Shown one piece after another: positions 21,725-64,000 of a stretch of DNA of 64,000 nucleotides. A program made the translations under genes and the position numbers. The stretch spans positions 1,304 to 65,303 of IMG/VR virus record IMGVR_UViG_3300008107_000072. One strand, given 5' to 3'. The notes beneath the pieces were generated by a model. It saw only the letters and a list, made by a program, of their open reading frames with translations, was not told the DNA's origin and searched no databases. The stretch is from a virus (taxonomy: Duplodnaviria; Caudoviricetes). Numbering within the stretch: the stretch's first letter is position 1; every line of letters starts with the position of its first letter.

Positions 21725-24700
21725 ATGGCAGAACAGCAATTCCCCTTAAGTCAAGAAGAGTTAAACCAAGAAGAATTTAAGCCTGACGTGGCGAATATAT
21801 TAGGCTACGATAAGGATATGTTCAACACCAAAGACTCTTTTGGAGAACTACCAAAAATAAACCCACAAGAACAGATACAGCTATTTGACGATGTGCCTGT
21901 TGGGAAAGAGCAGAAAAATGCTTTATTAAATCTAAATACAATATCGGAAGAGTCACTAGAAAACGTATCTATTGACGCAGACGGCAACTACGATTTTGCC
22001 ACTAAAGTAGATGACGGTACTGGCATTATGATGAATCAGGAGTTTGAAGACCCTATTCTTGAAAAGAAAAAGAAAGAACTGATTGATGATGTCAATAAAA
22101 GGAAAGACCAGGAAATAGAGACTCTTAAAGTAGATGCAGACCAGAAGGTAGCATCAGGGGAACTTAAAAAAAGCCGCAGAGACAGATACATAGAGAAGAA
22201 TCAGAAGGAGATAGAGAAGAGGTATAAGAAAGAAGCGGAAGATGGGTATAAAAATATATATAAAGAAGCTAATGAAAATAAGGATAAACCCTTAGTTAAA
22301 TTTAAAAATAGATTAAATAAATATAGCGAAGGTATAAATAACTTATGGGGTGTTGTTCAGAAATTACAAGCTGGAGATGTTATATCTCAAGAGGACTATA
22401 TATCAAGCTACTCAGACCCTGAATTTCAGAGTAAATATTTAGAGGTTAAAGGCAGAGGTATTTCAAGTATTAATCAGTTCAAAAGCGAATACGAAAAAGG
22501 TGGGAATGTAAAGGCAGGAGATATTTACTTAGGCTACATTACAGGAAATACATATTTAACAACCGATGCTTTTAAGAAAAGTTCAAGACCTGTATATTTC
22601 GAGGCTACGGTAGACAAAAAAGGCAATAAGACTATAAAGTCTGTTAAGCCTGCATTTGTGCATCCTGTTACCAAGCAAGTTATAGGTGCTTATGTGCCCC
22701 CACAAAGGGGCTCCAGTGATGTTTTAATTAACCCTGCTTATACTGCTATAGCTGGTTATTCTGACCAGATAGCAGGAATTGATAAAGATGTAGAGAATGG
22801 CGTTATAGATGTATCGGAGGGGCAAAGAAGAAAAGATAATGCTAAATCTAGAAGAGCAGAATATCTAAAAAATAATATCGAAGCATTTGATGAGATTATG
22901 GCCAGCGACAAGTACAGCAAAGATGTAAAGATGGCTGTAATTGCTTCAATGTATCCTAATGAATTTAAGAAGAAATATACAGAGCTTTTAGAAAGTGGAG
23001 ATAATAATATAGCAGGTTCTATTATAGGATGGAGCATAGGTCTTCCTGCAAAGGTAATATCTACTGTAACAGGTGCAGCGGCTTCCGGTATAGACAATCT
23101 TGTTCAGGCATATCTTGGCTTGGATGATATTGAGTTCCCTATGGGAACGCTTCCATTGGAGCTTAAGAGAAATCCTGAGATAGCTTTGGAGATGGACAAT
23201 GTAGTAAAATCATCCTATAACAGAAGTTCTAAATATTTAACTAGTATAGAAGGGTTGGCTGAGCTTACTCACGCCGCAAAGGTTAATGTAAATAATAAAA
23301 AAATAGGAGCTGCGATTGCTTCAGCGCAACCATTTGTTGAAGAGTTGGACTCTGTTGTTAGAGAAATAAATAACGATAAGCAGGCTCTTGATATTAATAT
23401 AAAGAATTATTCAAATGACTTACTGGGTATATTTAACAAGAAAGGATATACGACAGCATTGAATAATGCGTATAAGTTGAACAGCGAGCTTATTAATAGC
23501 AAAGATGAAGATATAAGAAACGCTTACAGGTTTATAAGATTAAAGCAGCAGGTATTGAATCATGATGGTTCGGCAGACCAAGCATTATCTAAGTTGTCTA
23601 AGGAGGACATTGAGTTTATCAATACAGTAGGTAAGGATTTGACGCAAAATAGGATTCCATTACTAAATACGGTTGTCGGTAAAATAAATGAAGTAGCGGA
23701 TGCGTTTAATTCGGCGAAAAGTCTATATCCTACAAAAGAAGTACAAGAATATGAAAGAAAGAATAAAGTAAAGTTAGAATCAGATATTAAATCCTTTAAC
23801 GACAAGGTGACTCTTTTTACGGAAAGCGATGTAATGTCATCTGAATCATCTTCTGCGTTAGATATAATTCAAAATCTTGGTATGAAATATGACCAAGAAG
23901 CCGCTGGAAATGAATCATATACCTTTCCTTCGTTAGCAAGAATTGGGCATCAGATGCCGAAGAATTTGCTTGCTATGACGAATCCGGCTACTGGATTAGT
24001 AGTAGGGATGCTTGAAGGAGTTTCGGATATACTTAGAAGCGTTGAGTCTACGGCTAACCTTGTAGGGAATATCCAGTCTTTAGACTTTGATTTGCAAAAA
24101 ACATATATTTCTGCATCGCTGAATGAGTGGAAGCGCAATTTAGAGATTAAAACACCTGATACTGGTAACTACATCTATAACCTATCTAAGCAAATAGGTG
24201 GAGCTCTTCCTCAAATGGCAGCATTTGTAGCTTCGTTTGTGGCTGGCGGTCCTATTGGTGGTGCTTCTTATTTAACAGCTACGATGACTGGGGACAAGAT
24301 GAAAGAAGCTGCTAATGCAGGACTTGACCCTATAGAGCAAATGCTTTATACAGGATTGAGTATAGGTATCGAGTATGGTTCTGAACTAGTAACATCGGAA
24401 ACTGGATTAGCAGGAGTTAGAGGAGGTAAGTCGTTGCTTACTAAAGAGTTGCTTAAAAAGATTATGAATGTACAAACAAGGAAGGAGGCTCTTAAGGAGT
24501 ACGCTAGACTTGTTTGGAATACATCTAAGAACGTGGTTAAAAGCGGAGCGCTTGAATCTTTTGAAGAGCAGGTGTCCGATAAGTCAAACTACATATTACA
24601 GAATCTGTTTAATAACGTATTTGCCACTACATTCCAACCGTCAATGATGGGGCTTAAGGAGTCTCTTGACAACCTGCTTACAATGACGGCTACGGGAGGT

Positions 24701-27700
24701 ATATTTAAGCTTACTACTGCTATGTTTAACAGGCAAGTGCCAGTAGAAGCTAAAATGAAGACGAGACTGCAAGAGCAAGGAATGTCTGATAATAGAGCTA
24801 CTCTTGTAGCAGGTGTATCTTCTCCTAGTGGACTTAAGTCGTCGATAGACTTTGTAAATGCTGTAGAATCCGGTCAAATATCATCTCAGGATATAAACAC
24901 AGAGGAGTATGAGTATTTAAAGAATAAGCTCATTCCGCAAGCAATGCGTTTGCAGACAGAGATGTTTAATATGTCTGCTAATACAAACCTAAGTATACAG
25001 CAACGTTCTGTCGCCTTGTTCAACATGATGCAGATGAATGAGGTGAATGACAGGGTTGAAAGAGGGGAGATTTCTGCTCAAATGGGGCAGGCTGAAATAG
25101 TGCAACTTCAGGATAATATAAATAAAGCATTAAAAGATAAAGCGTTTGCAAATGAGCAGTTTGGTTTAGATGATACAGGTCTTGCTCAAAAGATTAAAGA
25201 ATACATGGGTGTAGCTGACATTGCTATCAATGAAGAAGGCGCAATGGATGCAAGAACTACCACACCTGCTGCCACACAAGAGGTAGCGCCTGCTACAGAT
25301 GTAGCAAGTAGTAAGCCTGCTATGGAGGCGAGAATGGTAGAAGCTGAAAATGATGCAAGAGCAGCTGCTTCAAGTGCTACTACTGCTGCTAATCCTATAG
25401 CAAATGAGCAACAAGCAGACGCTTCGGTGCAAGCCGAAATGGGGATGCCTGCTCAGGCTCCTTCGCAAGTTGCTGGTTTTGAAGTAGTTAACAAAGCGAC
25501 CCTTGCAGAAAGGCTCATTAACATAGTAGCATCTCCTATTAGAAAGAACAAGGCAAGAGGTAGCATGGAAAGAGAGATTAATAAAAATCCTGAGAAGGCT
25601 CTTTCTATGGAGATTTACAATACGAGAGCGCAGCTTGATATGGCTCAGGACAGGTATGATAATGCTATATCAATGAAACCTGCTGCTCCTGTTGAATTAG
25701 CCGAGATTAAATTGATTACAGATAGATTAAACAAGCTTGTAGCATTAAAAGATAATTACGCTAAAACAATACAATATGCCACTGAAATCAGCCAAGGGCT
25801 CCAGCAAGAAATCGCTCAACGACGCAATCTCTTACAACCTACGGGAACTGAGCAAGGACAACCTCAAGTCGGGCAAAGAGAAGGGGGCGTCGGGCAAACC
25901 GCGCAGCAAGCAGCAGATGCTCGCAATCGCGATTTCGTCAGCCAAGCGCAAGCCGCAGTCCAAGAAATAACAGCTGTAACAGAAAAGCCACCTATCCTAA
26001 ATAGGTATCTATCAGGTATGCAGCCTGGGCAGGAGGTTCAGTTAATGGATGAAATAGCAGCACAAGTAGTTACTAATGAAGCTGCTGCGGTACGTCAATT
26101 TGGACAACCCGTCGTTGACAGGGTAAAACAATACGTTGCTGATACAAACTTTACTACAGACCTTCCTATTGTAAGAGATGCTATGGTTCGCCAAGCGGAG
26201 CAGAGCGTTGGTCAGGCAGAGCAGGAAGCTAATACAGTAATAGCAAGACAGAATCAGAATACATCTAAGCAGCATAAGAAAGCGGTAGTTAAACTCGTAG
26301 AAAGACTTAAGCAAGCCTTCCCGAATGTAAAGGTATTTATGGATAAGAAAGGGTTTGAGGCTGCTATACAAGACCCTGCTGCAAGAGAGTTGATGACAAA
26401 GGGTGGTGTGGTGTATGGTAGAGTATTAAATGGAAATGTATATCTGAATCCTGACTTTTCAAACTACAACACACCGCTGCATGAGTTTGGGCATCTATGG
26501 TTGAATGTGGCTAAGGAGGCATCTCCGAACATATACAACCGAGGGTTGGAGCTGATTCGTGATAGTGAATACGTTACACGTCTTGAAGGAGACCCTTTGT
26601 ATAATGGGTTAACCAAAGAGGAGCTTGAGGAGGAGGCGTTGGCTACTGCTATTGGAGATAGAGGTGAGCAGCTTGTATTAGAATCGCAGAAGAAAGGGTT
26701 TAGAGGATGGATGACAAGATTGCTACGCAAGATGGCTCAGTATGTAGGCATTATGAATATGTCTAGCAGCGAGCTTCGTAGTTTAGACCTTGACGCTTAT
26801 TTGAATATGGTGAATGCCAGCTTGCTTGCTGGTCAGCCATTGACCAGAGAGTCTATCAGAGCAAGTGGTTTTCAGATAATAGGAGAAAACGCACAGTTAT
26901 CTAAAAATATTATAAATAATCTTGGTGTTGCAAAAGATATGGAGGCATTAGGAAAAGATGCCTTAAATATAAGAATAGCTACGGGATGGGAAAAAGGAGC
27001 AGACAATAAATGGAGATACGAGATAATAGATGGCACATACAAAAGAAACTTATTTACTATTATTAAAGAGGCAACCGTAGGTCTTACAATAGGAGACGTA
27101 TATGATAATAAAGAATTATTCAGAGCATATCCTAAATTAAAATCTCTTCCATTTAAAGTAGAAGCGCTAAAGATTGGAGATAATGGGTACTATGATGGTT
27201 CTGGAATAGTGATGAATAAAACACTTGTTACTGATGACGAATTTTCATCAAGAGATAATATTATAAAGTCTACATTGCTTCACGAATTACAGCACGCTAT
27301 ACAAGACATAGAAGGATTCTCTATTGGTGGAAATGAATATTTTAAAGAATATACAAAATTAGCTGGAGAAGTTGAAGCCAGGAATGTTTCAAAGAGGATG
27401 AATATGACTCTTGGCGAAAGAAGAATGAATTTGCTGCAAGAAACAGAAGACGTAGCAAGAGAAGACCAAGTACTTTTCTTTAATAATTTTGCTTCACAAT
27501 TCATGGCTAAGATGGACAATAGTGTTAAAAACGCATTGACCAGAGTAGCACAGGAGCGTTTCAACTTAGCTATTGCAAAAGGAATGGATTTAGAAGCAGC
27601 TAGGGCAGAAGCGTTCACTAAACTTACAGAGTTCGTTATAGGTAATTACCTTAACAAATCAAACTATGCTGAAATATTAGATGGGCTTTCCGGCATAGTA

Positions 27701-30700
27701 TTGAACGTATCTGAGTCTGAAAGACAAAGAGTTATAGAGCAGAAGAAGACTGAAAAGTTAAATCAGCTATTTAGATTCTCTGAGATTCAGGCAATCGCAA
27801 CGATGGCAAACGAGGAGGCTTTAAGACTTGCACAAGGCAAGATTAAAGCTTCCGATGCCATCACGCAGGTTACTGAAAAAGTGAAGGCTGAAATAGAAGC
27901 TCTGTTTGCTGGCAATAAAGCTCCGGCAGGAGTATCTTGGATTAATGCAATGGCTCTTGCTCCCTCTATTGCTGCTGATGCAGTAATGGCTGCCTTCCCT
28001 GCTACAAACAGAAAGTCTTTGGTGAATGAGGATATTGTTATTATGACTACTTCTCAATTTGTTCGTAAGATTATATCTGATAAGATACGTGCTATAAAAG
28101 ATGTAGAGAAGCGTGCAGAAAAAGATATAAAAGCTACAGAGAAGCGTACAGAAAAAGCTATAAAAGATGCAGAAAAAGCTACGGAAAAAGCTATAAAAGC
28201 TACTGAAAAATCTACAAAAAAAGATATAAAAAGTAGAACAGAGTCTATAATAGAAGCTGTAAAAGAGATATTCAAGCAGATGTCAGATACTTACGGTAAG
28301 GGATTAAAACTATCTCCTTCTAAAGTAAATGCCATCATTGCCGAGATAGATGCAAATGTTTTCAGTCGGGAAGATATAATGTCAGCAACTGAGGAAGCGG
28401 CTAACGCTATATCTAACATCATTGAGAAGGAGTATAGAAAGAAACTTATTGATGAGTCTGTTGCTCTCTTGGATAAGCTAAAAGCTAAAACAGCTAAAGC
28501 TAAGTATACCGGGGATATGCTCAATAAGGCGATGACTCTTTTGGGTATAAATACTACCGATTGGAAAAATAGTGATGCTACTCTTGAAGATATATCTCTG
28601 TTCAATACAGCAATAAATAAGATTTTAGCAGGAGATGTTTCTCAGTTTGACTTTGCTATGTCTAAGGCAGGAGATATTCAGGTTGAAAATAATACTAAGA
28701 TTAGCAGTGAGTTTGACAGCCTCATGGGTAAGATGAATAGGATGATTGCTAAGGCAGGAAATCTTGATACTTCTGATTACGCATCTATAGCAGCTCTTTA
28801 TAATGCAATGATAGATGTTAAGGAGCGTAAGGGTGATTTGTCGGCTTTTACTGCTGAGCAGTTAGCTAAGCTAGAGCAGAAGTACTCTGATGTTATAGCT
28901 TCTATACCTGGCTCATTAACAATAGCTAAAATTGTAGAACAGAAAGAACGTGAAATAACTAATGACCTTAAGACGAAGGCTGATTTGCTAGCGTCTGAAT
29001 TAATATCAGAATCATCTGATATTCGGATGAAGATTAAAAATCCGCTTAGCTTACATAAGGCAATGCTGTTTTCATCATTTATACTTCAAGGTGATTATCT
29101 TGACAGCTTAGATACTAATGGTAAGCTTGCTCTTATTAACGCATTAGACAATATAATAATATACGGGAACTACAACTACGATGCTTATGTTCAGGATATA
29201 AAAGCAAGGAAGTATTACTTAAAAACTAATACTATTGATGCCGTAATGAATATGGCAAGAAGAAGAAGGACAACCTTAGCGTCTCCAGGTCATACAGGTC
29301 TTATTTTTAACAAGCTAAAAAACTTCTTAAGAATATTTACAGACGTAGAAGGTACTACTCCTTCTGCTCAGCTCATAGCAGACAACTTTGACCTATTAAG
29401 GCTTCAATCAATGGACGTAGAGCTGTTTAGCGGTTATGATGATTTCAATATGGGATTTTTGGAGAGAGATATATTCGCTCCAATGGCTTCAGGGGTAGAC
29501 GGTGCTGTAAACAGAACGCAGGCTAAGTTGCAGAACTTGCAAGATGCGATGCTGCTATTAGGCGACCAGTCTAATAGAAACGTTGTTAAAAAAGCAATTA
29601 AAGGAGTTAGAGAGCAGTATGGATTAGGCTCAGACCTTAATATGAGAAGGCTGTTTGCTATGTTTAAGAGAGGCTCAAACGAAAATATGTACGTTGAGAT
29701 TTCTACTCGCATGGCAACTATTATTGCCCATCAAATAGACCATATCTCAAACCTTAAAGAAGGTCAACAGGCTGACGATATGATTCTGAAAAGAAACATA
29801 TTAGATGGTATGGCTGAAAAGGAAAAAGAGGGTAAAACGATGGCAGATAGGTACGGTAAACTTGGTGGACTTAGCACGCTTACTGGCAAGTACGATGACC
29901 TTCTTGACGCAATAGCTTATGCCGCATTAACAAATAACGGAACAGAAACCCTTGCAGGAATAAGTCAAGAGGATTTACTAAATAAGTTAACTCCTTCTCA
30001 GAAAAAAGCGATTGTATCTTGGAGAGAGTTTATAAACGGTAACAAAGATTTGGTAGAGTCAGCGATGATTGTTAGGGGTAATATGAAGGCTCTGATTAAG
30101 AACTACTTCCCTAGAATGTTATCTTCATCTCAAGATGTAAGCAGCATAACCGATTATGATTCATACATGAATAGCCAGTCGGAAAACGTAGGGCTTAATG
30201 ATGGACAGATAAGTAGTCGTATTGGAGATAAAGGCAAGATAAGCCTTAATGGAAACAAGGTTCTTTTAAATAACCTTAAAGCACTTCATCTTCTAAACGA
30301 AATGCAGCCTTATGTCGACCAGATTAAAGCTGTTGGAGAAGCGGTTGAAGAGCTTAAGACATTAGCGTCTAAGGAAACAAATGAAGAGAAGAAAAGAGAA
30401 TATAACTTCGCAGCCGCATACGCAGAAGGTATTTCTATTACAATTAAAAACAGGCTAGATAATTCATTGCTTAATGGAGACAAGTCTTTGAATAACAGTT
30501 ACAACTTTGCTGCTAAAGCAATAGGTGTTACTCAAAAGTTTGCTGCTAAGCTTTGGTTAGTCGGTACTATCAGGCAGGTACTATCCGATTATCCTGCTAA
30601 CATAATAAAGACTTCTGCCGCTTTAGCTTCTGCTAATAAGTCTGCTAAGAGAGCGCCTAGTCTGCAAGCTTGGAGATTACTATTCCCAAGTAAGTCTGCT

Positions 30701-32257
30701 GTAAGAACAGAGCAGGGTAAGTTTGCATGGGAGGATTACGTTAAGATAGCAGAGATTACAGGTTCTCCTGTATATCGCACGGTTTCAATGTATTCCGACA
30801 ATTTCCTATACGATTACACTAAAACTCCTGCTGAGCTTCAAAGAGAGCAGAAGATTATGTCTTGGCAGGATATGGCTGTAAAGAAGCAGGCATGGATGGA
30901 AAGGTTTGAGAATGCTTTTGTAAAACTTACTGGTGAAGTATTCGACCATAAGGCTTTTGAAGATGAAAGAGGGACTTACAGAGCCATGTTCTATGAGGCT
31001 GTTCAGAAAGCGTCAAGTGCTGCCGATTCTACTGTTGATAGACAGTTTGGTCTACCTTCATTTGCTAGGCAGCCGCTAAGGACTAATATATTCTTTCCAT
31101 TCATAGGAAGACCTTTAAGGTATCTTATCAATACGTACTGGCCTTCGAAAACGGCTAATAACATCCTTACAATAAGTAAGACAAGTTGGATAGGCACTAT
31201 AACAGGATTCATGCAAGGCTATCCTGCCGTACAGTTCTCTTTATTCAGGAACTACATGAAGCTCGCATTTTCCGGCACAAGTGGCCTATCTACGAAAGAG
31301 AGGGCAGGATATATGACACAAGCGTTAACGGAGTCGTTTATCCCAACATTTGCTTATGCTATGTCTAGGAAGTTCTTTGGTGCATTGTTCGTAGGTGCTG
31401 CAATGGCTGCTAGAAATGCTGCTGGGGATGAAGATGAAGAAAAGAAGATAAGGGAGGATATGGACAATCAAGACTGGTGGAATAGGATGCTTACTTCATT
31501 TAAGTTGCAGTTCAGAGAGACAGAAGATGCGGTTATGGATAATCTAATAAACTCATTAACTGCTAACGTAGTAGACCCTAATACAACCTACTTATTAAGG
31601 ATGGCAGCAGGTCTGGTTATTTTCCAGTACTGGAAGAAAGAGGCGATTATAGCAATGGATAAAAGAGAGATTGAAACGCCTACAGGGAAGAGGATGATGA
31701 CTAAGGAAGAGAGAAAGAAAATGGGTAAGGCTATTAAAGAAAAGGAGAATAGAATATGGGATATGTTTAACGTAAGGCCTTTGGAAATATATGGAGGTAA
31801 AGACTACGAATATGCGTTAACTAAGCGTGACGTATCTTGGGCTGCCGGAAGACAAACACAAGGGTGGGAGGAGCTGTTTGAGTCTATTGGAGGATTTGGA
31901 GAGGTAGCTAAAACAGCTAGGTCTTTTGTAACAATCAAAGAGCTAACGGAGTCTGATAACAAAAATCTAGACAAGAAAGAGCTTTTAGTAGCGTCACTAA
32001 TGAAGGCTTACGCTTTAATATTTTCAAATGTTATGATTGGCGGCAAATACGGATGGGCTGCAAGTATGTTTACAGGTGACGCCAACAAGATAGCTAACAC
32101 GATACTTAAAGACTTAGAAAACGAAAACAGAGAGTTTTTAAAATCTCAAAAGAAAAGAAGTAGCGGAGGAAGCTCAGGTTCTAGAGGCGGTAGAAGGAGA
32201 GGTGGAAGCGGACGCGGTGGTGGCGGCAGAGGTGGTGGAGGAGGAAGAGGTGGATGA
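21725..32257 (+). CDS. Giant virion cargo/polyvalent protein with two zincin motifs, an LPD23-like segment and an RGG tail
   Basis: 3510 aa. HEFGH (~26480), ATGWEKGADNKWRYEI...LLHELQHAIQ..EGF...AGEVEARN (~26975-27390), C-terminal RGG repeats. Confidence 0.85.
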   Translation: MAEQQFPLSQEELNQEEFKPDVANILGYDKDMFNTKDSFGELPKINPQEQIQLFDDVPVGKEQKNALLNLNTISEESLENVSIDADGNYDFATKVDDGTGIMMNQEFEDPILEKKKKELIDDVNKRKDQEIETLKVDADQKVASGELKKSRRDRYIEKNQKEIEKRYKKEAEDGYKNIYKEANENKDKPLVKFKNRLNKYSEGINNLWGVVQKLQAGDVISQEDYISSYSDPEFQSKYLEVKGRGISSINQFKSEYEKGGNVKAGDIYLGYITGNTYLTTDAFKKSSRPVYFEATVDKKGNKTIKSVKPAFVHPVTKQVIGAYVPPQRGSSDVLINPAYTAIAGYSDQIAGIDKDVENGVIDVSEGQRRKDNAKSRRAEYLKNNIEAFDEIMASDKYSKDVKMAVIASMYPNEFKKKYTELLESGDNNIAGSIIGWSIGLPAKVISTVTGAAASGIDNLVQAYLGLDDIEFPMGTLPLELKRNPEIALEMDNVVKSSYNRSSKYLTSIEGLAELTHAAKVNVNNKKIGAAIASAQPFVEELDSVVREINNDKQALDINIKNYSNDLLGIFNKKGYTTALNNAYKLNSELINSKDEDIRNAYRFIRLKQQVLNHDGSADQALSKLSKEDIEFINTVGKDLTQNRIPLLNTVVGKINEVADAFNSAKSLYPTKEVQEYERKNKVKLESDIKSFNDKVTLFTESDVMSSESSSALDIIQNLGMKYDQEAAGNESYTFPSLARIGHQMPKNLLAMTNPATGLVVGMLEGVSDILRSVESTANLVGNIQSLDFDLQKTYISASLNEWKRNLEIKTPDTGNYIYNLSKQIGGALPQMAAFVASFVAGGPIGGASYLTATMTGDKMKEAANAGLDPIEQMLYTGLSIGIEYGSELVTSETGLAGVRGGKSLLTKELLKKIMNVQTRKEALKEYARLVWNTSKNVVKSGALESFEEQVSDKSNYILQNLFNNVFATTFQPSMMGLKESLDNLLTMTATGGIFKLTTAMFNRQVPVEAKMKTRLQEQGMSDNRATLVAGVSSPSGLKSSIDFVNAVESGQISSQDINTEEYEYLKNKLIPQAMRLQTEMFNMSANTNLSIQQRSVALFNMMQMNEVNDRVERGEISAQMGQAEIVQLQDNINKALKDKAFANEQFGLDDTGLAQKIKEYMGVADIAINEEGAMDARTTTPAATQEVAPATDVASSKPAMEARMVEAENDARAAASSATTAANPIANEQQADASVQAEMGMPAQAPSQVAGFEVVNKATLAERLINIVASPIRKNKARGSMEREINKNPEKALSMEIYNTRAQLDMAQDRYDNAISMKPAAPVELAEIKLITDRLNKLVALKDNYAKTIQYATEISQGLQQEIAQRRNLLQPTGTEQGQPQVGQREGGVGQTAQQAADARNRDFVSQAQAAVQEITAVTEKPPILNRYLSGMQPGQEVQLMDEIAAQVVTNEAAAVRQFGQPVVDRVKQYVADTNFTTDLPIVRDAMVRQAEQSVGQAEQEANTVIARQNQNTSKQHKKAVVKLVERLKQAFPNVKVFMDKKGFEAAIQDPAARELMTKGGVVYGRVLNGNVYLNPDFSNYNTPLHEFGHLWLNVAKEASPNIYNRGLELIRDSEYVTRLEGDPLYNGLTKEELEEEALATAIGDRGEQLVLESQKKGFRGWMTRLLRKMAQYVGIMNMSSSELRSLDLDAYLNMVNASLLAGQPLTRESIRASGFQIIGENAQLSKNIINNLGVAKDMEALGKDALNIRIATGWEKGADNKWRYEIIDGTYKRNLFTIIKEATVGLTIGDVYDNKELFRAYPKLKSLPFKVEALKIGDNGYYDGSGIVMNKTLVTDDEFSSRDNIIKSTLLHELQHAIQDIEGFSIGGNEYFKEYTKLAGEVEARNVSKRMNMTLGERRMNLLQETEDVAREDQVLFFNNFASQFMAKMDNSVKNALTRVAQERFNLAIAKGMDLEAARAEAFTKLTEFVIGNYLNKSNYAEILDGLSGIVLNVSESERQRVIEQKKTEKLNQLFRFSEIQAIATMANEEALRLAQGKIKASDAITQVTEKVKAEIEALFAGNKAPAGVSWINAMALAPSIAADAVMAAFPATNRKSLVNEDIVIMTTSQFVRKIISDKIRAIKDVEKRAEKDIKATEKRTEKAIKDAEKATEKAIKATEKSTKKDIKSRTESIIEAVKEIFKQMSDTYGKGLKLSPSKVNAIIAEIDANVFSREDIMSATEEAANAISNIIEKEYRKKLIDESVALLDKLKAKTAKAKYTGDMLNKAMTLLGINTTDWKNSDATLEDISLFNTAINKILAGDVSQFDFAMSKAGDIQVENNTKISSEFDSLMGKMNRMIAKAGNLDTSDYASIAALYNAMIDVKERKGDLSAFTAEQLAKLEQKYSDVIASIPGSLTIAKIVEQKEREITNDLKTKADLLASELISESSDIRMKIKNPLSLHKAMLFSSFILQGDYLDSLDTNGKLALINALDNIIIYGNYNYDAYVQDIKARKYYLKTNTIDAVMNMARRRRTTLASPGHTGLIFNKLKNFLRIFTDVEGTTPSAQLIADNFDLLRLQSMDVELFSGYDDFNMGFLERDIFAPMASGVDGAVNRTQAKLQNLQDAMLLLGDQSNRNVVKKAIKGVREQYGLGSDLNMRRLFAMFKRGSNENMYVEISTRMATIIAHQIDHISNLKEGQQADDMILKRNILDGMAEKEKEGKTMADRYGKLGGLSTLTGKYDDLLDAIAYAALTNNGTETLAGISQEDLLNKLTPSQKKAIVSWREFINGNKDLVESAMIVRGNMKALIKNYFPRMLSSSQDVSSITDYDSYMNSQSENVGLNDGQISSRIGDKGKISLNGNKVLLNNLKALHLLNEMQPYVDQIKAVGEAVEELKTLASKETNEEKKREYNFAAAYAEGISITIKNRLDNSLLNGDKSLNNSYNFAAKAIGVTQKFAAKLWLVGTIRQVLSDYPANIIKTSAALASANKSAKRAPSLQAWRLLFPSKSAVRTEQGKFAWEDYVKIAEITGSPVYRTVSMYSDNFLYDYTKTPAELQREQKIMSWQDMAVKKQAWMERFENAFVKLTGEVFDHKAFEDERGTYRAMFYEAVQKASSAADSTVDRQFGLPSFARQPLRTNIFFPFIGRPLRYLINTYWPSKTANNILTISKTSWIGTITGFMQGYPAVQFSLFRNYMKLAFSGTSGLSTKERAGYMTQALTESFIPTFAYAMSRKFFGALFVGAAMAARNAAGDEDEEKKIREDMDNQDWWNRMLTSFKLQFRETEDAVMDNLINSLTANVVDPNTTYLLRMAAGLVIFQYWKKEAIIAMDKREIETPTGKRMMTKEERKKMGKAIKEKENRIWDMFNVRPLEIYGGKDYEYALTKRDVSWAAGRQTQGWEELFESIGGFGEVAKTARSFVTIKELTESDNKNLDKKELLVASLMKAYALIFSNVMIGGKYGWAASMFTGDANKIANTILKDLENENREFLKSQKKRSSGGSSGSRGGRRRGGSGRGGGGRGGGGGRGG
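25776..25970 (+). CDS. Overprinted small basic protein nested in the giant gene (different frame)
   Basis: MPLKSAKGSSKK...ISYNLREL...GKPRSKQQMLAIAISSAK resembles the 'MPLKKG.S..AIS.NI.E....KP.KQAVAIALS' small phage proteins; A-rich leader TAAAACAATACAAT-ATG. Confidence 0.65.
   Translation: MPLKSAKGSSKKSLNDAISYNLRELSKDNLKSGKEKGASGKPRSKQQMLAIAISSAKRKPQSKK
28094..28231 (+). repeat. 33-bp (11-aa) coding tandem repeat, about 4 copies
   Basis: IKDVEKRAEKD / IKATEKRTEKA / IKDAEKATEKA / IKATEKSTKKD. Confidence 0.85.
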
Positions 32258-59421: not shown

Positions 59422-59811
59422 TTATCCAAGAGCTGTATATCCTATGTCAACGAGGTGCTGCTCTGCTTCGCTGTTTGCAAACACCGGAACGAGACGTACA
59501 GCTTTACCTTTCTTGGTAGGTGATGCGTACCATACGACGTTGCCACCTTGCTTGTGTAGGTAGAAGCCATGTCCTGCCTCGTCACCTGAAGCAGTAGAGT
59601 GTACTACTTCGATAAGGCGTGTGTCGTTGTAGTCGGGAACGTTAAGCGTGTCAACAAATTGTGAGAGTGAATCATAGTCTACGTTAAGCACGAAGCCTTG
59701 CTTTGATAGCAGGTCAGGTACAGCTCCGAGAATGATGTGTTGTACATTTCCATTTTGGTCGGCATTGTACATTGCTTTGAGCGTGCTGCGGTCTAATGTT
59801 ACTTGTGACAT
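59422..59811 (-). CDS. Hypothetical early protein (paralog of 59863..60333)
   Basis: GDEAGHGFYL...EAEQHLVDIGYT. Confidence 0.65.
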   Translation of the reverse strand: MSQVTLDRSTLKAMYNADQNGNVQHIILGAVPDLLSKQGFVLNVDYDSLSQFVDTLNVPDYNDTRLIEVVHSTASGDEAGHGFYLHKQGGNVVWYASPTKKGKAVRLVPVFANSEAEQHLVDIGYTALG

Positions 59812-59862
59812 TTTAGAGTGACAGTTTTTATCGTGGTGTCTCCACGTTATCGTTTAATTATT

Positions 59863-60333
59863 TTAGTTTTGTTTAGTAAATAGTTTTGATATGTTTGTGT
59901 ATCCTAGTGACTTAAGGTATTCCTGTTCGTCTTTGTCGTGTGAAAGCACCAATGCCATATCTGATGCTGAGTATTGTCTAACAAATACCTCGCTATTCAT
60001 CATATAGAATCCTAGACCTCCCTCTTCGCCTTGTGCTACACCCAATATAGGAGCGATAGTTACATTATCCCAAACTGTTCTTATATTGCAACAGTAATCA
60101 TCTATATTGCTACTAATATTTTCTCCTCTACTAGCCATCTTCATCTTCCCCCTCAATACAGCATTGTCTTCTTGTGGTTTATCTTCTTGTGCGATGAAGT
60201 CGTCTTCGATGTCGTCATCATCTTGTAGTACGTATGGGTGGTCGGATACAATTTCATCCCAGGCATCACTGAATAGCGAGTCCTTGATTGTCATTAGGCT
60301 GTTCTTGACAGATATTTTTTCTTTCTTTGTCAT
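59863..60333 (-). CDS. Hypothetical early protein
   Basis: GEEGGLGFYM...DEQEYLKSLGYT. Confidence 0.65.
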   Translation of the reverse strand: MTKKEKISVKNSLMTIKDSLFSDAWDEIVSDHPYVLQDDDDIEDDFIAQEDKPQEDNAVLRGKMKMASRGENISSNIDDYCCNIRTVWDNVTIAPILGVAQGEEGGLGFYMMNSEVFVRQYSASDMALVLSHDKDEQEYLKSLGYTNISKLFTKQN

Positions 60334-60345
60334 GTGATTTTGTTT

Positions 60346-60777
60346 TTAGTTAAAGTAATATTTCATTATACGTCTGCCAAAGTATGTGCGTAGTGCCTTT
60401 CTTATATCGTGTCCTGTTTCGTACACGTTACGCCCATCAGGATGTTTCTCGTCACGATAGTCTGCCCATATAATATCAGCGATTACCCTTGCCGCAGCTG
60501 GTCTGTATTCGGTAGGGAAGTATTGCCCGGTGATGTACTGAAGCTGTCCCCTTTCATCTATTGTCAGCCTACCTGATGACCTTTGTAGGTATGCCTTTAT
60601 CTTGTCATCAAGGTTGTTTACTCTCAGTCTTGCGTGGTTGAGTAGGTCGTGGAAGTCACCCATGTCCTTAGTTATCTCACGCCTTTCGGAGTTGTATGCT
60701 TTCCAGTCTCCGTAATTGTGGAAGTCAAGTCCAGGTCTCTGAGACACGAACTTGCATAGCAGATTGATTGTACTCAT
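60346..60777 (-). CDS. Hypothetical early protein
   Basis: QRPGLDF.NYG...Y..GQYFPTEYR.AA motif; conserved leader. Confidence 0.7.
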   Translation of the reverse strand: MSTINLLCKFVSQRPGLDFHNYGDWKAYNSERREITKDMGDFHDLLNHARLRVNNLDDKIKAYLQRSSGRLTIDERGQLQYITGQYFPTEYRPAAARVIADIIWADYRDEKHPDGRNVYETGHDIRKALRTYFGRRIMKYYFN

Positions 60778-60797
60778 ACGTTTTGTTTTTAGAGTGA

Positions 60798-61466
60798 TTA
60801 TTCGTAACGGAAATTTTTTATTGTATTACCGTGTTTACTTAGTAAAGACATATCTAAGTTACAGCTGTAATACCCACTTGCGAAATGATACCCAGGAATC
60901 TTGACTGAATGTCCATTTGTAGGGATTAGTTCAATGCCATACCCTTCTATCTTACGGAAGAATTTATCATCAGATAGGTCGAACTCTAATCCTTCAAAGT
61001 CCTGCATACCTATATGCTCAAAGTCAAAGTAAGCGTATGCGTCCATGTTTGTATCGTCATAAAATACAAGAGATAGTCCGCAGTCAAATGTGATACGCTT
61101 ATGTCCGTCATATTCTTCATCATCAACGGCATTTACACTTGTAATACTTACAACGCGACTTTTCTTGTGATATTTAGGGTCAAATATTACGTTGCTTGTA
61201 TCCAAACCTAGCACGTACATTGCGTTCATAATGAAAGCCTCCAGTGTTTCCCTGCTCAGATACATTATAGATTGTCTGACACCTAGCCTACTAGCATGAA
61301 TTACGCATGGCTTGTCAGCATCTTCGCCTACGTAGTTGTTTACGTTCAGCGTAAATAAATCGTCCGAGTTCCTGATAACTGTAACAGTTTTGTTATGGTA
61401 CTTTCTCCTTGCACCTTGCAAGAAATTAGTTTCAAGTCGTTTCGACGTGTCTTTAATCATTGCCAT
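60798..61466 (-). CDS. Hypothetical early protein
   Basis: 222 aa; conserved leader. Confidence 0.65.
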   Translation of the reverse strand: MAMIKDTSKRLETNFLQGARRKYHNKTVTVIRNSDDLFTLNVNNYVGEDADKPCVIHASRLGVRQSIMYLSRETLEAFIMNAMYVLGLDTSNVIFDPKYHKKSRVVSITSVNAVDDEEYDGHKRITFDCGLSLVFYDDTNMDAYAYFDFEHIGMQDFEGLEFDLSDDKFFRKIEGYGIELIPTNGHSVKIPGYHFASGYYSCNLDMSLLSKHGNTIKNFRYE

Positions 61467-61485
61467 AAGTTTTATTTTAGAGTGA

Positions 61486-61722
61486 TTAGGAATGTTTCAT
61501 GCCGGACATTACACCATACCCTTTGCGTTGAGCTAGTCGGTTAATCCTGTTTGCTGTATCAAGTGGTACTACCTGAATGGTGTTACCTGTTTTGTGGTTC
61601 GTTACAGGTATGCAGCCTACTCTTTGCGTATCTGAGCAGTCTATACATTTGTCGAATCCTGCACGAGTGAGCCTGAGTTCAGGCATCTGTTTACCGCAGC
61701 GTTTACATGGGATTGTCTGCAT
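61486..61722 (-). CDS. Small Zn-finger protein
   Basis: CKRC...RL......CIDC (DksA/TraR-like spacing). Confidence 0.65.
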   Translation of the reverse strand: MQTIPCKRCGKQMPELRLTRAGFDKCIDCSDTQRVGCIPVTNHKTGNTIQVVPLDTANRINRLAQRKGYGVMSGMKHS

Positions 61723-61846
61723 ATTTATCTGATTTATCGGTTTGCAAAAGTGCGATTAGAAAAAATACAGCTACGCCAATTAACATAGCGGCGATATTGT
61801 CCGTCAATAATAGTAAGCAAGCGATAATGAATAGTATTAGTTTCAC
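61703..61846 (-). CDS. Small two-TM membrane protein
   Basis: GTG 61846 after an A-rich leader; the longer ORF-track start crosses a terminator. Confidence 0.45.
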   Translation of the reverse strand: MKLILFIIACLLLLTDNIAAMLIGVAVFFLIALLQTDKSDKYADNPM

Positions 61847-61869
61847 TTTAGTTTTGTTTAGATGTAAAT

Positions 61870-61902
61870 AAAAAAGCCGGACAGCATTACCTGTTTCCGG
61901 CT
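61870..61902 (-). terminator. Intrinsic terminator (minus strand)
   Basis: AGCCGGA...TCCGGCT followed by TTTTT on the minus strand. Confidence 0.7.
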
Positions 61903-61925
61903 CGTTCTCACTCAACACAATATTT

Positions 61926-62093
61926 TTAGAATGTTACCATGTGGGCTCCTGTTCTCATTTTAGGCGCAGCACCGTTGTATTTCTTCGGCATCCATACTCC
62001 GCATCCACCACCGCCAACATTACGGTAAGAAGAGCAAGAAGACAGCATTCCAATAACAATAGCAATTCCTAAGAGTTTTTTAACTAGTTTCAT
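61926..62093 (-). CDS. Small early lipoprotein
   Basis: MKLVKKLLGIAIVIGMLSS-C lipobox from ATG 62093; an in-frame upstream ATG also exists at 62228. Confidence 0.6.
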   Translation of the reverse strand: MKLVKKLLGIAIVIGMLSSCSSYRNVGGGGCGVWMPKKYNGAAPKMRTGAHMVTF

Positions 62094-62239
62094 AATAGAA
62101 GTTTTTGTTTTTTGTGAGAGATTGTTTTTAAATACATTAACGTCGAAATAGTGTGCGTTTGGTGTAGGCGGTTTTGGCTCGTATCTAGAGCCGAATTTAA
62201 CATACTCCGCCCATTCATTCTGTGTCATGTGCTTAGAGT

Positions 62240-62431
62240 TTACTGGTTAAGGTTTGGGTTTGCTTGCATACGTTCGAACATTCTGAGACTTGCCTTTCTT
62301 CTGTAATCTTGCACGTCTTCCCCTAATAAATTAAGGAGTTCAACAGTACGTGAGTGAGTACTTTGTACCTTTACGTGTACGTTACGGCGAATAGTACCGT
62401 TAGCTTTTACGGAGAGGATTTTCTGAGCCAT
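62240..62431 (-). CDS. Small early protein
   Basis: Start moved to ATG 62431 (MAQKILS) by the TCACTCT leader; the ORF-track extension runs through the tRNA-like element. Confidence 0.6.
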   Translation of the reverse strand: MAQKILSVKANGTIRRNVHVKVQSTHSRTVELLNLLGEDVQDYRRKASLRMFERMQANPNLNQ

Positions 62432-62459
62432 AGTTTTAATGTTTAAGAGTGAATAAATA

Positions 62460-62517
62460 GGGGACAGCCGGGAATCGAACCCGGCACTACCTTTCGCCTT
62501 CACTTAGTCCCTGTCCC
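62460..62517 (-). ncRNA. 58-nt tRNA-like element (acceptor stem and T arm, no full D/anticodon arms)
   Basis: GGGACAG-N26-CCGGG-TTCGATT-CCCGG-CTGTCCC-C. Confidence 0.7.
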
Positions 62518-62519
62518 TT

Positions 62520-63065
62520 TAAGTATAAAAAAATACAAGTTACCCAAACAGAAACAGCCCTTTGTTTAACATCAGGGCGAGTATAGGCATAGCATAGCTT
62601 ACCTGTTTATGAGTGAGTAAAAAGATTTTTATTTTAGTTTTCTTAAGTTATCTTTTTATTGCGTATTCTCTACAATTCTCAGCTTCACAATTTCATACGT
62701 AACCCTTACCAATTTCCAATGGATAAGGCACTAACAGAATCCGTCCTCTGTTAGCGTGCAGACTTTTCCCCGTTAAACGGTTGGATGCACTGCAACGAAA
62801 GCAATAACATAAATATGTTTAATTGCTGTTAACTTCCGCTATGTCAATGAGCTTGCAAAGTTACATTTTCGACAAACGTAATAAAGCACCGCGCTTTGTT
62901 TGACAATATACAGGACGCACCGCGCGTTTTTTCCTGTAATATTATTACGTCTGTTTTCTATGTTGGTCGTATCCTTTGCTAGATATTTGCCGACCTTTGC
63001 GCGTCCCTAAATTTCCGAAATTTCCGCGCGTCTATTTTCAACGCGCTAAGGGACGCACCGCGTAA
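62520..63065 (-). ncRNA. Candidate large structured non-coding RNA
   Basis: ~550 nt with no ORF of 60 aa or more and many nested inverted repeats; GCACCGCG occurs three times. Strand inferred from context. Confidence 0.5.
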
Positions 63066-63067
63066 AA

Positions 63068-63553
63068 TTACGCGTGAATATCCGCGAATATTTCGCGCGT
63101 TGCGTTGTCTACATTGGCGCACTTTTCGCCGCGATAATAACGCGTAATGATATTTTTAAACTCTGTTGGGGTGATGCCACCGCGTAGCATATTTCGCGCC
63201 GCTTCTGTTTCCTTTACAAAATCCATATATTCGCGAATCGGCAATTTATACACATCATCAACTGAAATATCTTTGCCTGTTTCCGCTGATAAGTTAGCGC
63301 AAAAAATTTCAGACTTTGCGCGCGCGTTTTCTTTAAATAGTAACCGAATTACCGATAAATCCAGGAACGCGTTTTTTATTTCCTTTGCCATGTCTTTCCC
63401 CGCGTCGTTTGTTGCTTTGCGTTTTTCGCGCGCTAGTCTTTGCGCTAGTTGTCGCGCTGTCTCATTCTCTTTCGCGATGTGGTTTAATGAAATTTGTACT
63501 TTTTCGGTTTTTGTAGTTTGCCCAACTTGTGGGGCTGTTGTTGTCTTTTTCAT
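63068..63553 (-). CDS. First early gene, hypothetical protein (CGCG-rich DNA)
   Basis: 161 aa, with a consensus promoter and conserved leader upstream. Confidence 0.7.
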   Translation of the reverse strand: MKKTTTAPQVGQTTKTEKVQISLNHIAKENETARQLAQRLAREKRKATNDAGKDMAKEIKNAFLDLSVIRLLFKENARAKSEIFCANLSAETGKDISVDDVYKLPIREYMDFVKETEAARNMLRGGITPTEFKNIITRYYRGEKCANVDNATREIFADIHA

Positions 63554-63590
63554 TTTGTTTTTGTTTTTGAGTGATTGAATAAATACAATA

Positions 63591-63623
63591 CAAATATACT
63601 ACATATATATACTACATTCCAAA
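63591..63623 (-). promoter_or_regulatory. Consensus Bacteroidota sigma-A promoter driving the early operon
   Basis: Minus strand TTTG(63623-63620)-N21-TATATTTG(63598-63591). Confidence 0.75.
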
Positions 63624-64000
63624 TATTTTAATAACTATTTTTGCAACAACGTTGCAAATAACTGTTAAAATTATGTTAATGGATTACTAAAGAATTTAGC
63701 ACAACTATTGCTAATAATTTTAGTAAAAGAAAACAGGCTGTAAAATTAAAATTGTTTCACGAATTATATTACTAATAAATTTAGTACTAACAATTTTAGC
63801 AAAAACAGTTATCCTATTCGCTGATTTACCGGAAAAAGAAAAAGTAAAGAGGGGAGCTGAAATTCAATTTGCGTTATCTTTCACAAGTAAGTAACATTCA
63901 GTTGATTACGACGACAAAAGCTATTTTATTTTTTTTCGGAGGGTACACGGTAGCTGAAGTCGTTTCCCCACAAAACGAATCGATGCTGAGGGGATGGGGT

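Follow-up and report, generated by a model that had tools for sequence, protein, structure and literature searches.

What is encoded by the roughly 550 nucleotides (nt) that separate two small genes near the end of an uncultured phage genome? The locus belongs to the IMG/VR virus record IMGVR_UViG_3300008107_000072, and we analysed it within a 64-kb stretch (hereafter the window), nearly all of the 65,303-base record, which is classed as linear and 94% complete. About 1 kb from the end of this linear contig, the minus strand carries, in this order, gene X (63553..63068), the stretch of interest, a tRNA-like element (62517..62460) and gene Y (62431..62240). An earlier reading of the letters alone (hereafter the original prediction) had proposed an undescribed large RNA, co-transcribed with a basic protein of 161 amino acids (aa) and trimmed at its 3' end through the tRNA mimic. 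Our sequence comparisons substantiate the first of these proposals. An undescribed large multibranched structured RNA on the gene X strand is well supported, because covariation is found in every domain, G-U pairs are strand-specific and no Rfam family matches at its gathering score. In the window this RNA is about 550 nt long, to which the tRNA-like 3' element adds 58 nt; relatives reach about 800 nt. Beyond this, we favour, with a probability of roughly 55%, the reading that 63067..62460 (minus strand) represents a new family of large modular phage non-coding RNA (ncRNA), which would be co-transcribed with gene X, cut at the tRNA-like element and active in trans.

The stretch has little to offer as coding sequence. 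Only short open reading frames (ORFs) of 31, 36 and 47 aa lie between gene X and the tRNA-like element, and no reading frame is open in all 14 homologous copies of the first 243 nt, in agreement with the original description of some 550 nt without ORFs. On the minus (gene-sense) strand, the folding energy is -158.3 kcal/mol, compared with -128.4 +/- 5.9 in 100 shuffles (z = -5.07), well below the shuffled controls; the plus strand gives z = -3.73. When the tRNA-like piece is included (608 nt, 63067..62460, minus), z is -6.84, a value obtained from 20 shuffles only. Detailed minimum-energy folds of single sequences are unreliable: in the fold of the middle part, 22 of the 81 pairs are broken and 7 gapped in the relative L006. 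Only the comparative structure is trustworthy.

Known RNA families do not account for the stretch either. A search of the window with cmscan (Infernal) against Rfam 15 returned no match at gathering scores, and hence the novelty claimed for the RNA stands. At E<=10 over 62200-63700, only mascRNA-menRNA and tmRNA_permuted appeared, and no relevant match was found at E<=1 in 19 related loci. The covariance models of GOLLD and ROOL matched neither the window nor the related loci, even at lax E-values. With no Rfam match, the sole operational test of membership places this RNA outside GOLLD, ROOL and the other catalogued families.

Relatives were collected in two ways. An alignment (A1) of 30 gene X family proteins led to one IMG/VR locus and 10 metagenome loci, and DNA-pattern scans of IMG/VR on conserved RNA motifs added L013, L016/L017, L018, L019, L020 and L021. 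Some of these loci are redundant (L002 equals L008, L010 equals L011 over the shared part, and L003 is close to L012), and about 16 distinct metagenomic phage loci have the same arrangement. In every true relative, gene X (small and basic) is followed by 546-802 nt that contain no conserved ORF, then by a 3' element and finally by gene Y (about 60 aa). The RNA has been kept in five or more diverged lineages of freshwater phages, all uncultured, and the window genome holds one copy. Judged from blastn alignments, the RNA gap is at least as conserved as the flanking genes. In L010/L011, 131 nt of gene X align at 69.6% identity and 253 nt of the RNA at 72.3%. In L018-L021, a 1.4-kb query detects only 40-42 nt, which lie in module 1 of the RNA, just past the stop codon; gene X similarity is weak or undetectable there, and in these most distant phages blastn picks up nothing but module 1.

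The comparative evidence is most extensive for the first part of the RNA, domain A (63067..62851), which is made up as follows.

63001..63067, minus: domain A module 1, 5' tail UUUUACGCGG, then P1 enclosing H1 and H2
63056-63049 / 63008-63001, minus: P1, compensatory changes in all 8 pairs
63046-63040 / 63032-63026, minus: H1, loop UGAAAAUAG invariant in 14/14 sequences
63023-63018 / 63014-63009, minus: H2, loop CGG, consensus AAAUNU-CGN-ANAUUU
62851..63000, minus: remainder of domain A, with Px, P2, the P3 set and the conserved 3' motif AAGCUCAUUGACAUA
62999-62996 / 62859-62856, minus: Px
62995-62991 / 62969-62965, minus: P2, 5/5 pairs compensatory
62985-62982 / 62973-62970, minus: P2b, within P2
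62963-62960 / 62866-62863, minus: P3o, 4/4 pairs compensatory
62951-62942 / 62884-62875, minus: P3a, part of the four-way junction, 10/10 pairs compensatory
62938-62933 / 62914-62909, minus: P3b, part of the four-way junction
62927-62924 / 62918-62915, minus: P3c, loop GCGGU
62906-62903 / 62899-62896, minus: P3d, 4/4 pairs compensatory
62895-62893 / 62887-62885, minus: P3e, loop GCGGU

Thus laid out, domain A starts with P1 (enclosing H1 and H2), continues with the stem-loop P2 and the four-way junction P3, and closes with the conserved AAGUUCAUUGAAAUA. Two arms of the P3 junction are capped by matching pentaloops. The loops vary in concert from one lineage to the next: the window group has GCGGU, the L018 group GCAAU and L013 ACGGA. 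The original prediction had noticed that GCACCGCG recurs three times, twice at hairpin tips, and this is the case. The three copies in the window all lie within the RNA stretch (62886, 62917 and 63055), where two form the tips of P3c and P3e and the third sits at the 5' foot of P1; 0.27 copies are expected, and none of 100 shuffles reaches three. The ten stems named at the outset are likewise all present, at or within a few bases of the positions given for them, and nine of them show compensatory changes in relatives. For GCAAAG/CTTTGC, the stem itself is there, and close relatives show no variation in it; across the 14 sequences of the model-fitted alignment described below, two of its four pairs change on both sides.

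Covariation was assessed on alignments of two kinds. With MAFFT-only alignments, RNAalifold recovered 54 consensus pairs in nine sequences, 26 of them compensatory, and the same architecture in three sequences of the L018 group (60 pairs, 11 compensatory). We then wrote the structure by hand on the nine-sequence alignment to build the covariance model R1 (243 positions, 66 pairs). Of the 15 sources searched with R1, 14 contain a full-length match. Nine close sequences score 251-266 bits, L013 scores 120.8, L018, L020 and L021 score 69-71, and L019 scores 48.3. The fifteenth source, L016, gives 12.5 bits (E 0.004) directly after gene X and, folded alone, has the same start of P1 plus two hairpins. 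In the alignment of 14 sequences, 96.3% of 833 cells are paired (73.6% in shuffled and 38-50% in slid controls), 49 of the 66 pairs change on both sides (27.6 and 14-26, respectively), and the covariation score is 0.519 (0.152 and 0.06-0.09). On all five measures, no shuffle out of 500 comes up to the observed value, so the covariation looked for among homologs is indeed present. This alignment was fitted to the model and is biased towards the structure; the MAFFT-only counts are the independent check. In addition, a scan for extra covarying helices yielded one candidate tertiary contact, in which UUG/UCG within the conserved UUCAUUGA might base-pair with the CGG/CAA tips of the hairpins; the changes there are one-sided only.

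These data bear on the idea that the stretch is decaying, functionless sequence, a remnant of tRNA genes, an intron or short genes with incidental hairpins. Decay would fit a 3' element that is tRNA-derived and degenerate in some lineages, and it would fit the sporadic ORFs of 64-111 aa found in the gap of some relatives. However, many double changes preserve pairing in every domain, and loops are invariant across lineages whose flanking proteins can barely be aligned. Moreover, there is no frame open in all 14 sequences, no Rfam match to an intron or tRNA, and no tRNA reported by ARAGORN. We regard decay as improbable in the extreme.

The strand on which pairing is kept is informative as well. 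In the 14 sequences, read on the gene-sense strand, G-U/U-G cells number 56 and A-C/C-A cells 9, which indicates that pairing is maintained on that strand, as in RNA and not as in duplex DNA. This asymmetry argues against palindromes that act at the DNA level, be it as replication origin, packaging site, operators or extruded hairpin promoters for an N4-type virion RNA polymerase. Such sites would agree with the near-terminal position on a linear contig, with the nearly invariant H1 stem (5 of its 7 pairs never vary or vary one-sidedly), with several stems of 5-6 bp and 3-nt loops, and with a 3510-aa ORF elsewhere in the window that recalls N4-type polymerases, in size only. Yet the long-range nested helices P1 and P3a, and M0 of the middle domain, covary, which is not required of duplex-DNA sites, and the genome has no integrase. 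A DNA-level role is therefore highly unlikely. An attachment site (attP) carrying a tRNA 3' fragment was also considered, and was rejected for the same lack of an integrase.

Downstream of domain A, the window carries the short form of a middle domain.

62645..62835, minus: middle domain, short form, closing helix M0 and five arms M1-M5
62835-62831 / 62649-62645, minus: M0, closing helix
62827-62823 / 62804-62800, minus: M1, tip 62818-62815 / 62810-62807
62794-62787 / 62763-62757, minus: M2, tip 62780-62777 / 62773-62770
62756-62746 / 62739-62729, minus: M3, covaries also in L002, L007 and L009
62728-62722 / 62710-62704, minus: M4
62703-62696 / 62665-62658, minus: M5

This form is common to the window and L006, where it is 70% identical. 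The consensus fold of the two comprises 49 pairs, 13 compensatory and none broken, and includes four of the stems first pointed out. A longer, different middle domain is found in L003, L004, L005, L013 and L016/L017 (for instance at L013 5820-6215), with a conserved core AACGGACAAAGUAGCCC and 59 consensus pairs, 22 of them compensatory. Since lineages carry different structured middle domains, the RNA is modular.

The 3' part of the RNA consists of a linker, a hairpin and the tRNA-like element.

62579..62644, minus: A/U-rich linker; within it lie the gene-start motif, as UCACUCAUAAAC (62616..62605), and CUAUACUC (62586..62579), which is invariant
62557..62578, minus: domain B hairpin, GCCCU-GA-UGU-UAA-ACA-A-AGGGC, conserved loop
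62460..62517, minus: tRNA-like element, 58 nt, with acceptor stem, T arm and discriminator C (62460), no encoded CCA
62517-62511 / 62467-62461, minus: acceptor stem, 7 bp, GGGACAG/CUGUCCC
62484-62480 / 62472-62468, minus: T arm, CCGGG-UUCGAUU-CCCGG, canonical 7-nt T-loop UUCGAUU

In eight sequences, the domain B hairpin has 8 pairs, 3 of them compensatory, and 95.3% of cells paired. Together with the tRNA-like stems, 8 of 20 pairs are compensatory and 90% of cells are paired, and none of 500 shuffles scores as high. A hammerhead ribozyme was considered for domain B (CUGAUGU..AAAC) and discarded, as it has no stem II and no Rfam match. In the tRNA-like element, both the acceptor stem and the T stem covary, seven of the eight aligned sequences retain the T-loop, and 26 nt replace the D and anticodon arms. 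The element thus has the 7-bp acceptor stem stacked on a T arm with canonical 7-nt T-loop that characterizes mascRNA-type structures, and its best Rfam match is mascRNA-menRNA (RF01684; 17.9 bits, E 1.7, against a gathering score of 42.5). The match to tmRNA_permuted (13.8 bits, E 3.5, gathering score 47) does not qualify it as a tmRNA. No full cloverleaf was found: ARAGORN reports no tRNA or tmRNA gene in the window and no tRNA in 17 loci, and the Rfam tRNA model has no match at E<=10 over 62200-63700. Altogether, the 3' element is clearly tRNA-derived. Trimming at this mimic, the last part of the original proposal, is plausible in view of the covarying stems, the largely retained T-loop and a twister match that one relative (L019, see below) has at the same junction.

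The tRNA-like piece is linked to the RNA by two findings. Between 62420 and 62641, a 42-kb contig from another run differs from the window by five letters, but upstream of this segment the two diverge. In L003 (4254-4466) and L012 (937-1149), an extra 70-aa ORF separates the tRNA-like element from gene Y, and hence the element belongs to the RNA and not to gene Y. In both loci, the leader motif described below precedes the extra ORF as well as gene Y. In L019, a match to the twister ribozyme of type P1 (RF03160) comes after a decayed tRNA-like hairpin and ends 26 nt before gene Y. This match scores 45.5 bits (E 3.4e-7 over 28.9 kb, 7.7e-9 over 651 nt), below the gathering score of 67.2. The core nucleotides (the UAA cleavage site, GUCCCAAG, UAAA and GAGGG) and the P1/P2 pairing are present, and shortened internal stems lower the score.

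The genes around the RNA, and the site from which it may be transcribed, are the following.

63068..63553, minus: gene X, 161-aa basic protein, pI 9.3, orphan family, always directly upstream of the RNA
62240..62431, minus: gene Y, 63-aa basic protein (MAQKI...), conserved downstream neighbour of the RNA
63591..63623, minus: promoter-like site upstream of gene X, TTTG (63623..63620), 21-nt spacer, TATATTTG (63598..63591)

The gene X product is basic, as originally stated, and its pI is 9.3-10 in four lineages. Its family holds 31 proteins at E<=0.01, the window protein included, whose members bear placeholder names only or, in one case, an evidently wrong name. The gene X product has an Arg/Lys-rich stretch at the N-terminus, and the proteins of the four lineages share a C-terminal motif ending in RYYR/KYFK. 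Searches against Pfam, PHROG, NCBIfam and PDB sequences gave no match, and neither the protein atlas nor a search for longer fused forms returned anything usable. The promoter-like site TTTG-N21-TATATTTG lies 38 nt upstream of gene X and was compared with the Bacteroidota promoter consensus. TANNTTTG matches 63591-63598 (minus), and this motif is only mildly enriched in the window (87 against 70.4 expected). Predicted sigma-70-type promoters and intrinsic terminators in 62000-64000 are at chance level (5 against 5.0 and 3 against 2.0, respectively). The only Bacteroidota-type promoter-like site sits upstream of gene X, no better candidate for a transcription start is apparent, and the RNA starts 3-12 nt past the gene X stop codon; we only infer co-transcription of the two.

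Within gene X, two further resemblances to the RNA were seen. The last codons (63085-63100) are an 81% near-copy of the H1/H2 junction at 63016-63031 (CGAATATTTCGCGCGT vs CGAAATTTCCGCGCGT), and R1 has a weak 14-bit match at 63207-63454 (minus). These could be chance or the trace of a duplication. The sequence upstream of gene X (63554-63870) is AT-rich (21-28% GC), contains repeated TTAGTA/TTAGCA/CTAATA words and a palindrome, TTTGCAAC-GTT-GTTGCAAA (63658..63640; a perfect 8 bp with 3-nt loop), and is only partly kept in close relatives. It may hold early promoters or operators.

This setting is also the basis for a purely cis-acting role, in which the stretch would be a long 3' untranslated region of gene X and/or a leader of gene Y that affects mRNA stability or translation, or that loads a factor on the polymerase and so lets it pass the terminators of the early operon, in the manner of lambda N/nut or HK022 put. 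The position directly after the first gene of an operon, behind a promoter-like site, would suit such a role. So would a small, basic gene X with its Arg/Lys-rich N-terminus, the two or three short hairpins whose matching pentaloops co-change between lineages, and the gene-start motif inside the linker. However, a length of 550-800 nt, some 130 conserved pairs, junctions of several helices and domains that can be swapped go far beyond the known cis elements of antitermination or stability. In addition, the RNA and tRNA-like unit stays intact where an extra gene intervenes before gene Y, and the pentaloops of the window group are not GNRA-like. A 3' cleavage signal would moreover detach the RNA from the elongating polymerase, and such processing argues mildly against antitermination in cis. 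On balance, we consider an exclusively cis-acting element unlikely.

The reading that we favour, a processed RNA acting in trans, may be put as a sequence of steps. The host polymerase would transcribe the RNA together with gene X from the promoter-like site, and host RNase P (5' side) and RNase Z or an equivalent (3' side) would excise it at the tRNA-like element; in one lineage, the twister ribozyme beside the decayed hairpin may do the cutting. Once freed, the RNA would act in trans early in infection, folded into a stable particle that might also contain the basic gene X product or further copies of the RNA. The original prediction had named a ribonucleoprotein, a sponge or an antitermination system as possible functions. 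The invariant loops (UGAAAAUAG, the CGG hairpin tips and UUCAUUGA) would be contact sites, and the lineage-specific matching pentaloops (GCGGU, GCAAU, ACGGA) look like sites of protein contact or of tertiary or quaternary RNA contact.

Several observations weigh against this proposal. No sequencing run listed for the stretch is on record as RNA. The one RNA run of the likely source sample yielded nothing, and the DNA contigs gave only L004-like variants apart from the 42-kb contig. Support for domain A comes from 14 sequences of about five lineages, with the main count taken from the model-fitted alignment, and the short middle domain is supported by two sequences only. In L013 and the L018 group, the acceptor-like stem is kept (it covaries between L018 and L021) and the T-loop is absent; cleavage by RNase P and RNase Z may hence not be universal. 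The twister match is a single, sub-threshold sequence located 3' of the hairpin rather than in its place, and among 31 IMG/VR loci with the twister-core pattern, L019 alone carries this RNA (0 of the 30 others, which include L049, L036 and L040). Six of the other loci were inspected; in five, an ORF starts 25-306 nt past the core, and in three of these five the distance is 25-45 nt. As unrelated phage contigs have a twister core 25-100 nt before ORFs, the ribozyme may serve ordinary mRNA processing. Finally, the sequence of gene X gives no match to a family or solved structure and no mark of RNA binding.

Elsewhere in the window, the plus strand codes for terminase, portal and tail proteins, and the minus strand for primase/helicase and many orphan genes. 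A Bacteroidota host is likely on the basis of distant kinship, as the terminase is 28-30% identical to terminases of Cellulophaga, Flavobacterium and Maribacter podoviruses. R1 has no match in four terminase-related records (Cellulophaga, Flavobacterium and Maribacter phages and one uncultured spring virus). Among GenBank phages, blastn found no close relative of the RNA region and tblastn no match to gene X, and a single-protein locus search for relatives in IMG/VR found none. Three candidate relatives were set aside: L015, from a Prevotella metagenome-assembled genome, is a chance match, and L028 and L029, found by a 17-nt motif of the long middle domain, have no R1 match and an unrelated context. 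A single plus-strand ORF of 3510 aa (21725-32257) has no PHROG match, and its size alone recalls virion RNA polymerases of N4-like and crAss-like phages.

At least five minus-strand genes in a row (starts 59811, 60777, 61466, 62431 and 63553) have the gene-start motif, TCACTC-WW-AAAC/T, 0-10 nt ahead of their ATG. The copy in the RNA linker (62616..62605) is followed by a 7-codon mini-ORF that is kept by L004 and not by L003. In the whole window, the motif has 8 matches against 4.75 expected, a count that is not significant, as 11 of 100 shuffles reach 8; it is the positions (59810-63574, minus) that stand out. In this phage group, the motif may mark translation starts or act as a leader signal.

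Very few natural RNAs longer than 500 nt with elaborate conserved folds are known, if ribosomes, RNase P and introns are set aside. The most familiar are GOLLD, ROOL and OLE, and the functions of all three are poorly understood. We tentatively suggest that the RNA described here may be a fourth class of ornate giant phage RNA, one that, like GOLLD and ROOL, whose kind is marked by homo-oligomeric RNA-only assemblies (nanocages), would form a defined higher-order particle (an RNA-only multimer or a ribonucleoprotein with the gene X protein) and would combine a tRNA-like release handle with swappable middle domains. If so, it would be the first of its kind to have a particular partner gene and a link with the very start of infection, here in phages probably infecting Bacteroidota, and the function of ornate RNAs would become experimentally approachable. 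The partner protein, the probable cleavage signal, the timing at the head of a probable early operon and the natural domain swaps all offer handles. More generally, uncultured freshwater phages hold large RNA families absent from Rfam. The full-text literature searched contains no description of this RNA; fragments of it may be among the candidates of Fremin et al., whose tables were outside the search. That article predicts 8,495 candidate structured RNAs with a mean of 67 nt from IMG/VR (Fremin et al., 2023; PMC10690425).

Some of its features recall smaller or more distant systems that differ from it in clear ways. A retron or other reverse-transcriptase-linked RNA was rejected, as the genome has no reverse transcriptase. 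Lambda N/nut boxB and HK022 put are cis-acting antitermination RNAs of tens of nucleotides, and boxB is a hairpin whose GNRA-like pentaloop binds an arginine-rich peptide. The likeness lies in the place beside the first gene of an early operon, the small basic protein and the short pentaloop hairpins. In the present RNA, by contrast, about 130 pairs are conserved over three domains, the 3' end bears a probable cleavage signal, and GCGGU is not GNRA-like. Bacterial Y RNAs (YrlA) are ncRNAs with an attached tRNA-like module that work with a Ro/Rsr protein and are sometimes phage-encoded. They share with this RNA the covalently attached module, whereas this RNA is several times larger and has no Rfam match. 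A Ro/Y-RNA system was set aside, as no TROVE (Ro) domain is found in the genome. In eukaryotes, MALAT1 and MEN-beta undergo mascRNA-type tRNA-like 3' processing, and there, as here, a large RNA is directly followed by a tRNA-like element without a normal anticodon arm. As the mascRNA score is far below threshold, this is a likeness of shape only, and cleavage here is predicted.

The closest relatives in kind, by analogy of size, setting and architecture, are ROOL and GOLLD. ROOL (Rumen-Originating, Ornate, Large) is presented in a recent preprint as a phage and prophage ncRNA of about 600 nt, often near tRNA islands and with no known protein partner (Kretsch et al., bioRxiv 10.1101/2024.12.08.627333). 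The RNA described here is of similar size and has a tRNA-related neighbourhood as well; it differs in habitat and secondary structure, and in that a specific basic gene is always adjacent. GOLLD is described in that preprint as ornate, longer than 800 nt in many members, found in phages, prophages and lake metagenomes, and composed of one conserved and one variable part, with tRNAs adjacent or in the linker and a function that is unknown (bioRxiv 10.1101/2024.12.08.627333). In contrast to GOLLD, the 5' module is here the most conserved and the middle the variable part, and the 3' piece is a truncated tRNA mimic and not a tRNA; multimers of this RNA would be a prediction. Still, both are large ornate phage RNAs that join a conserved to a variable part and are associated with tRNA.

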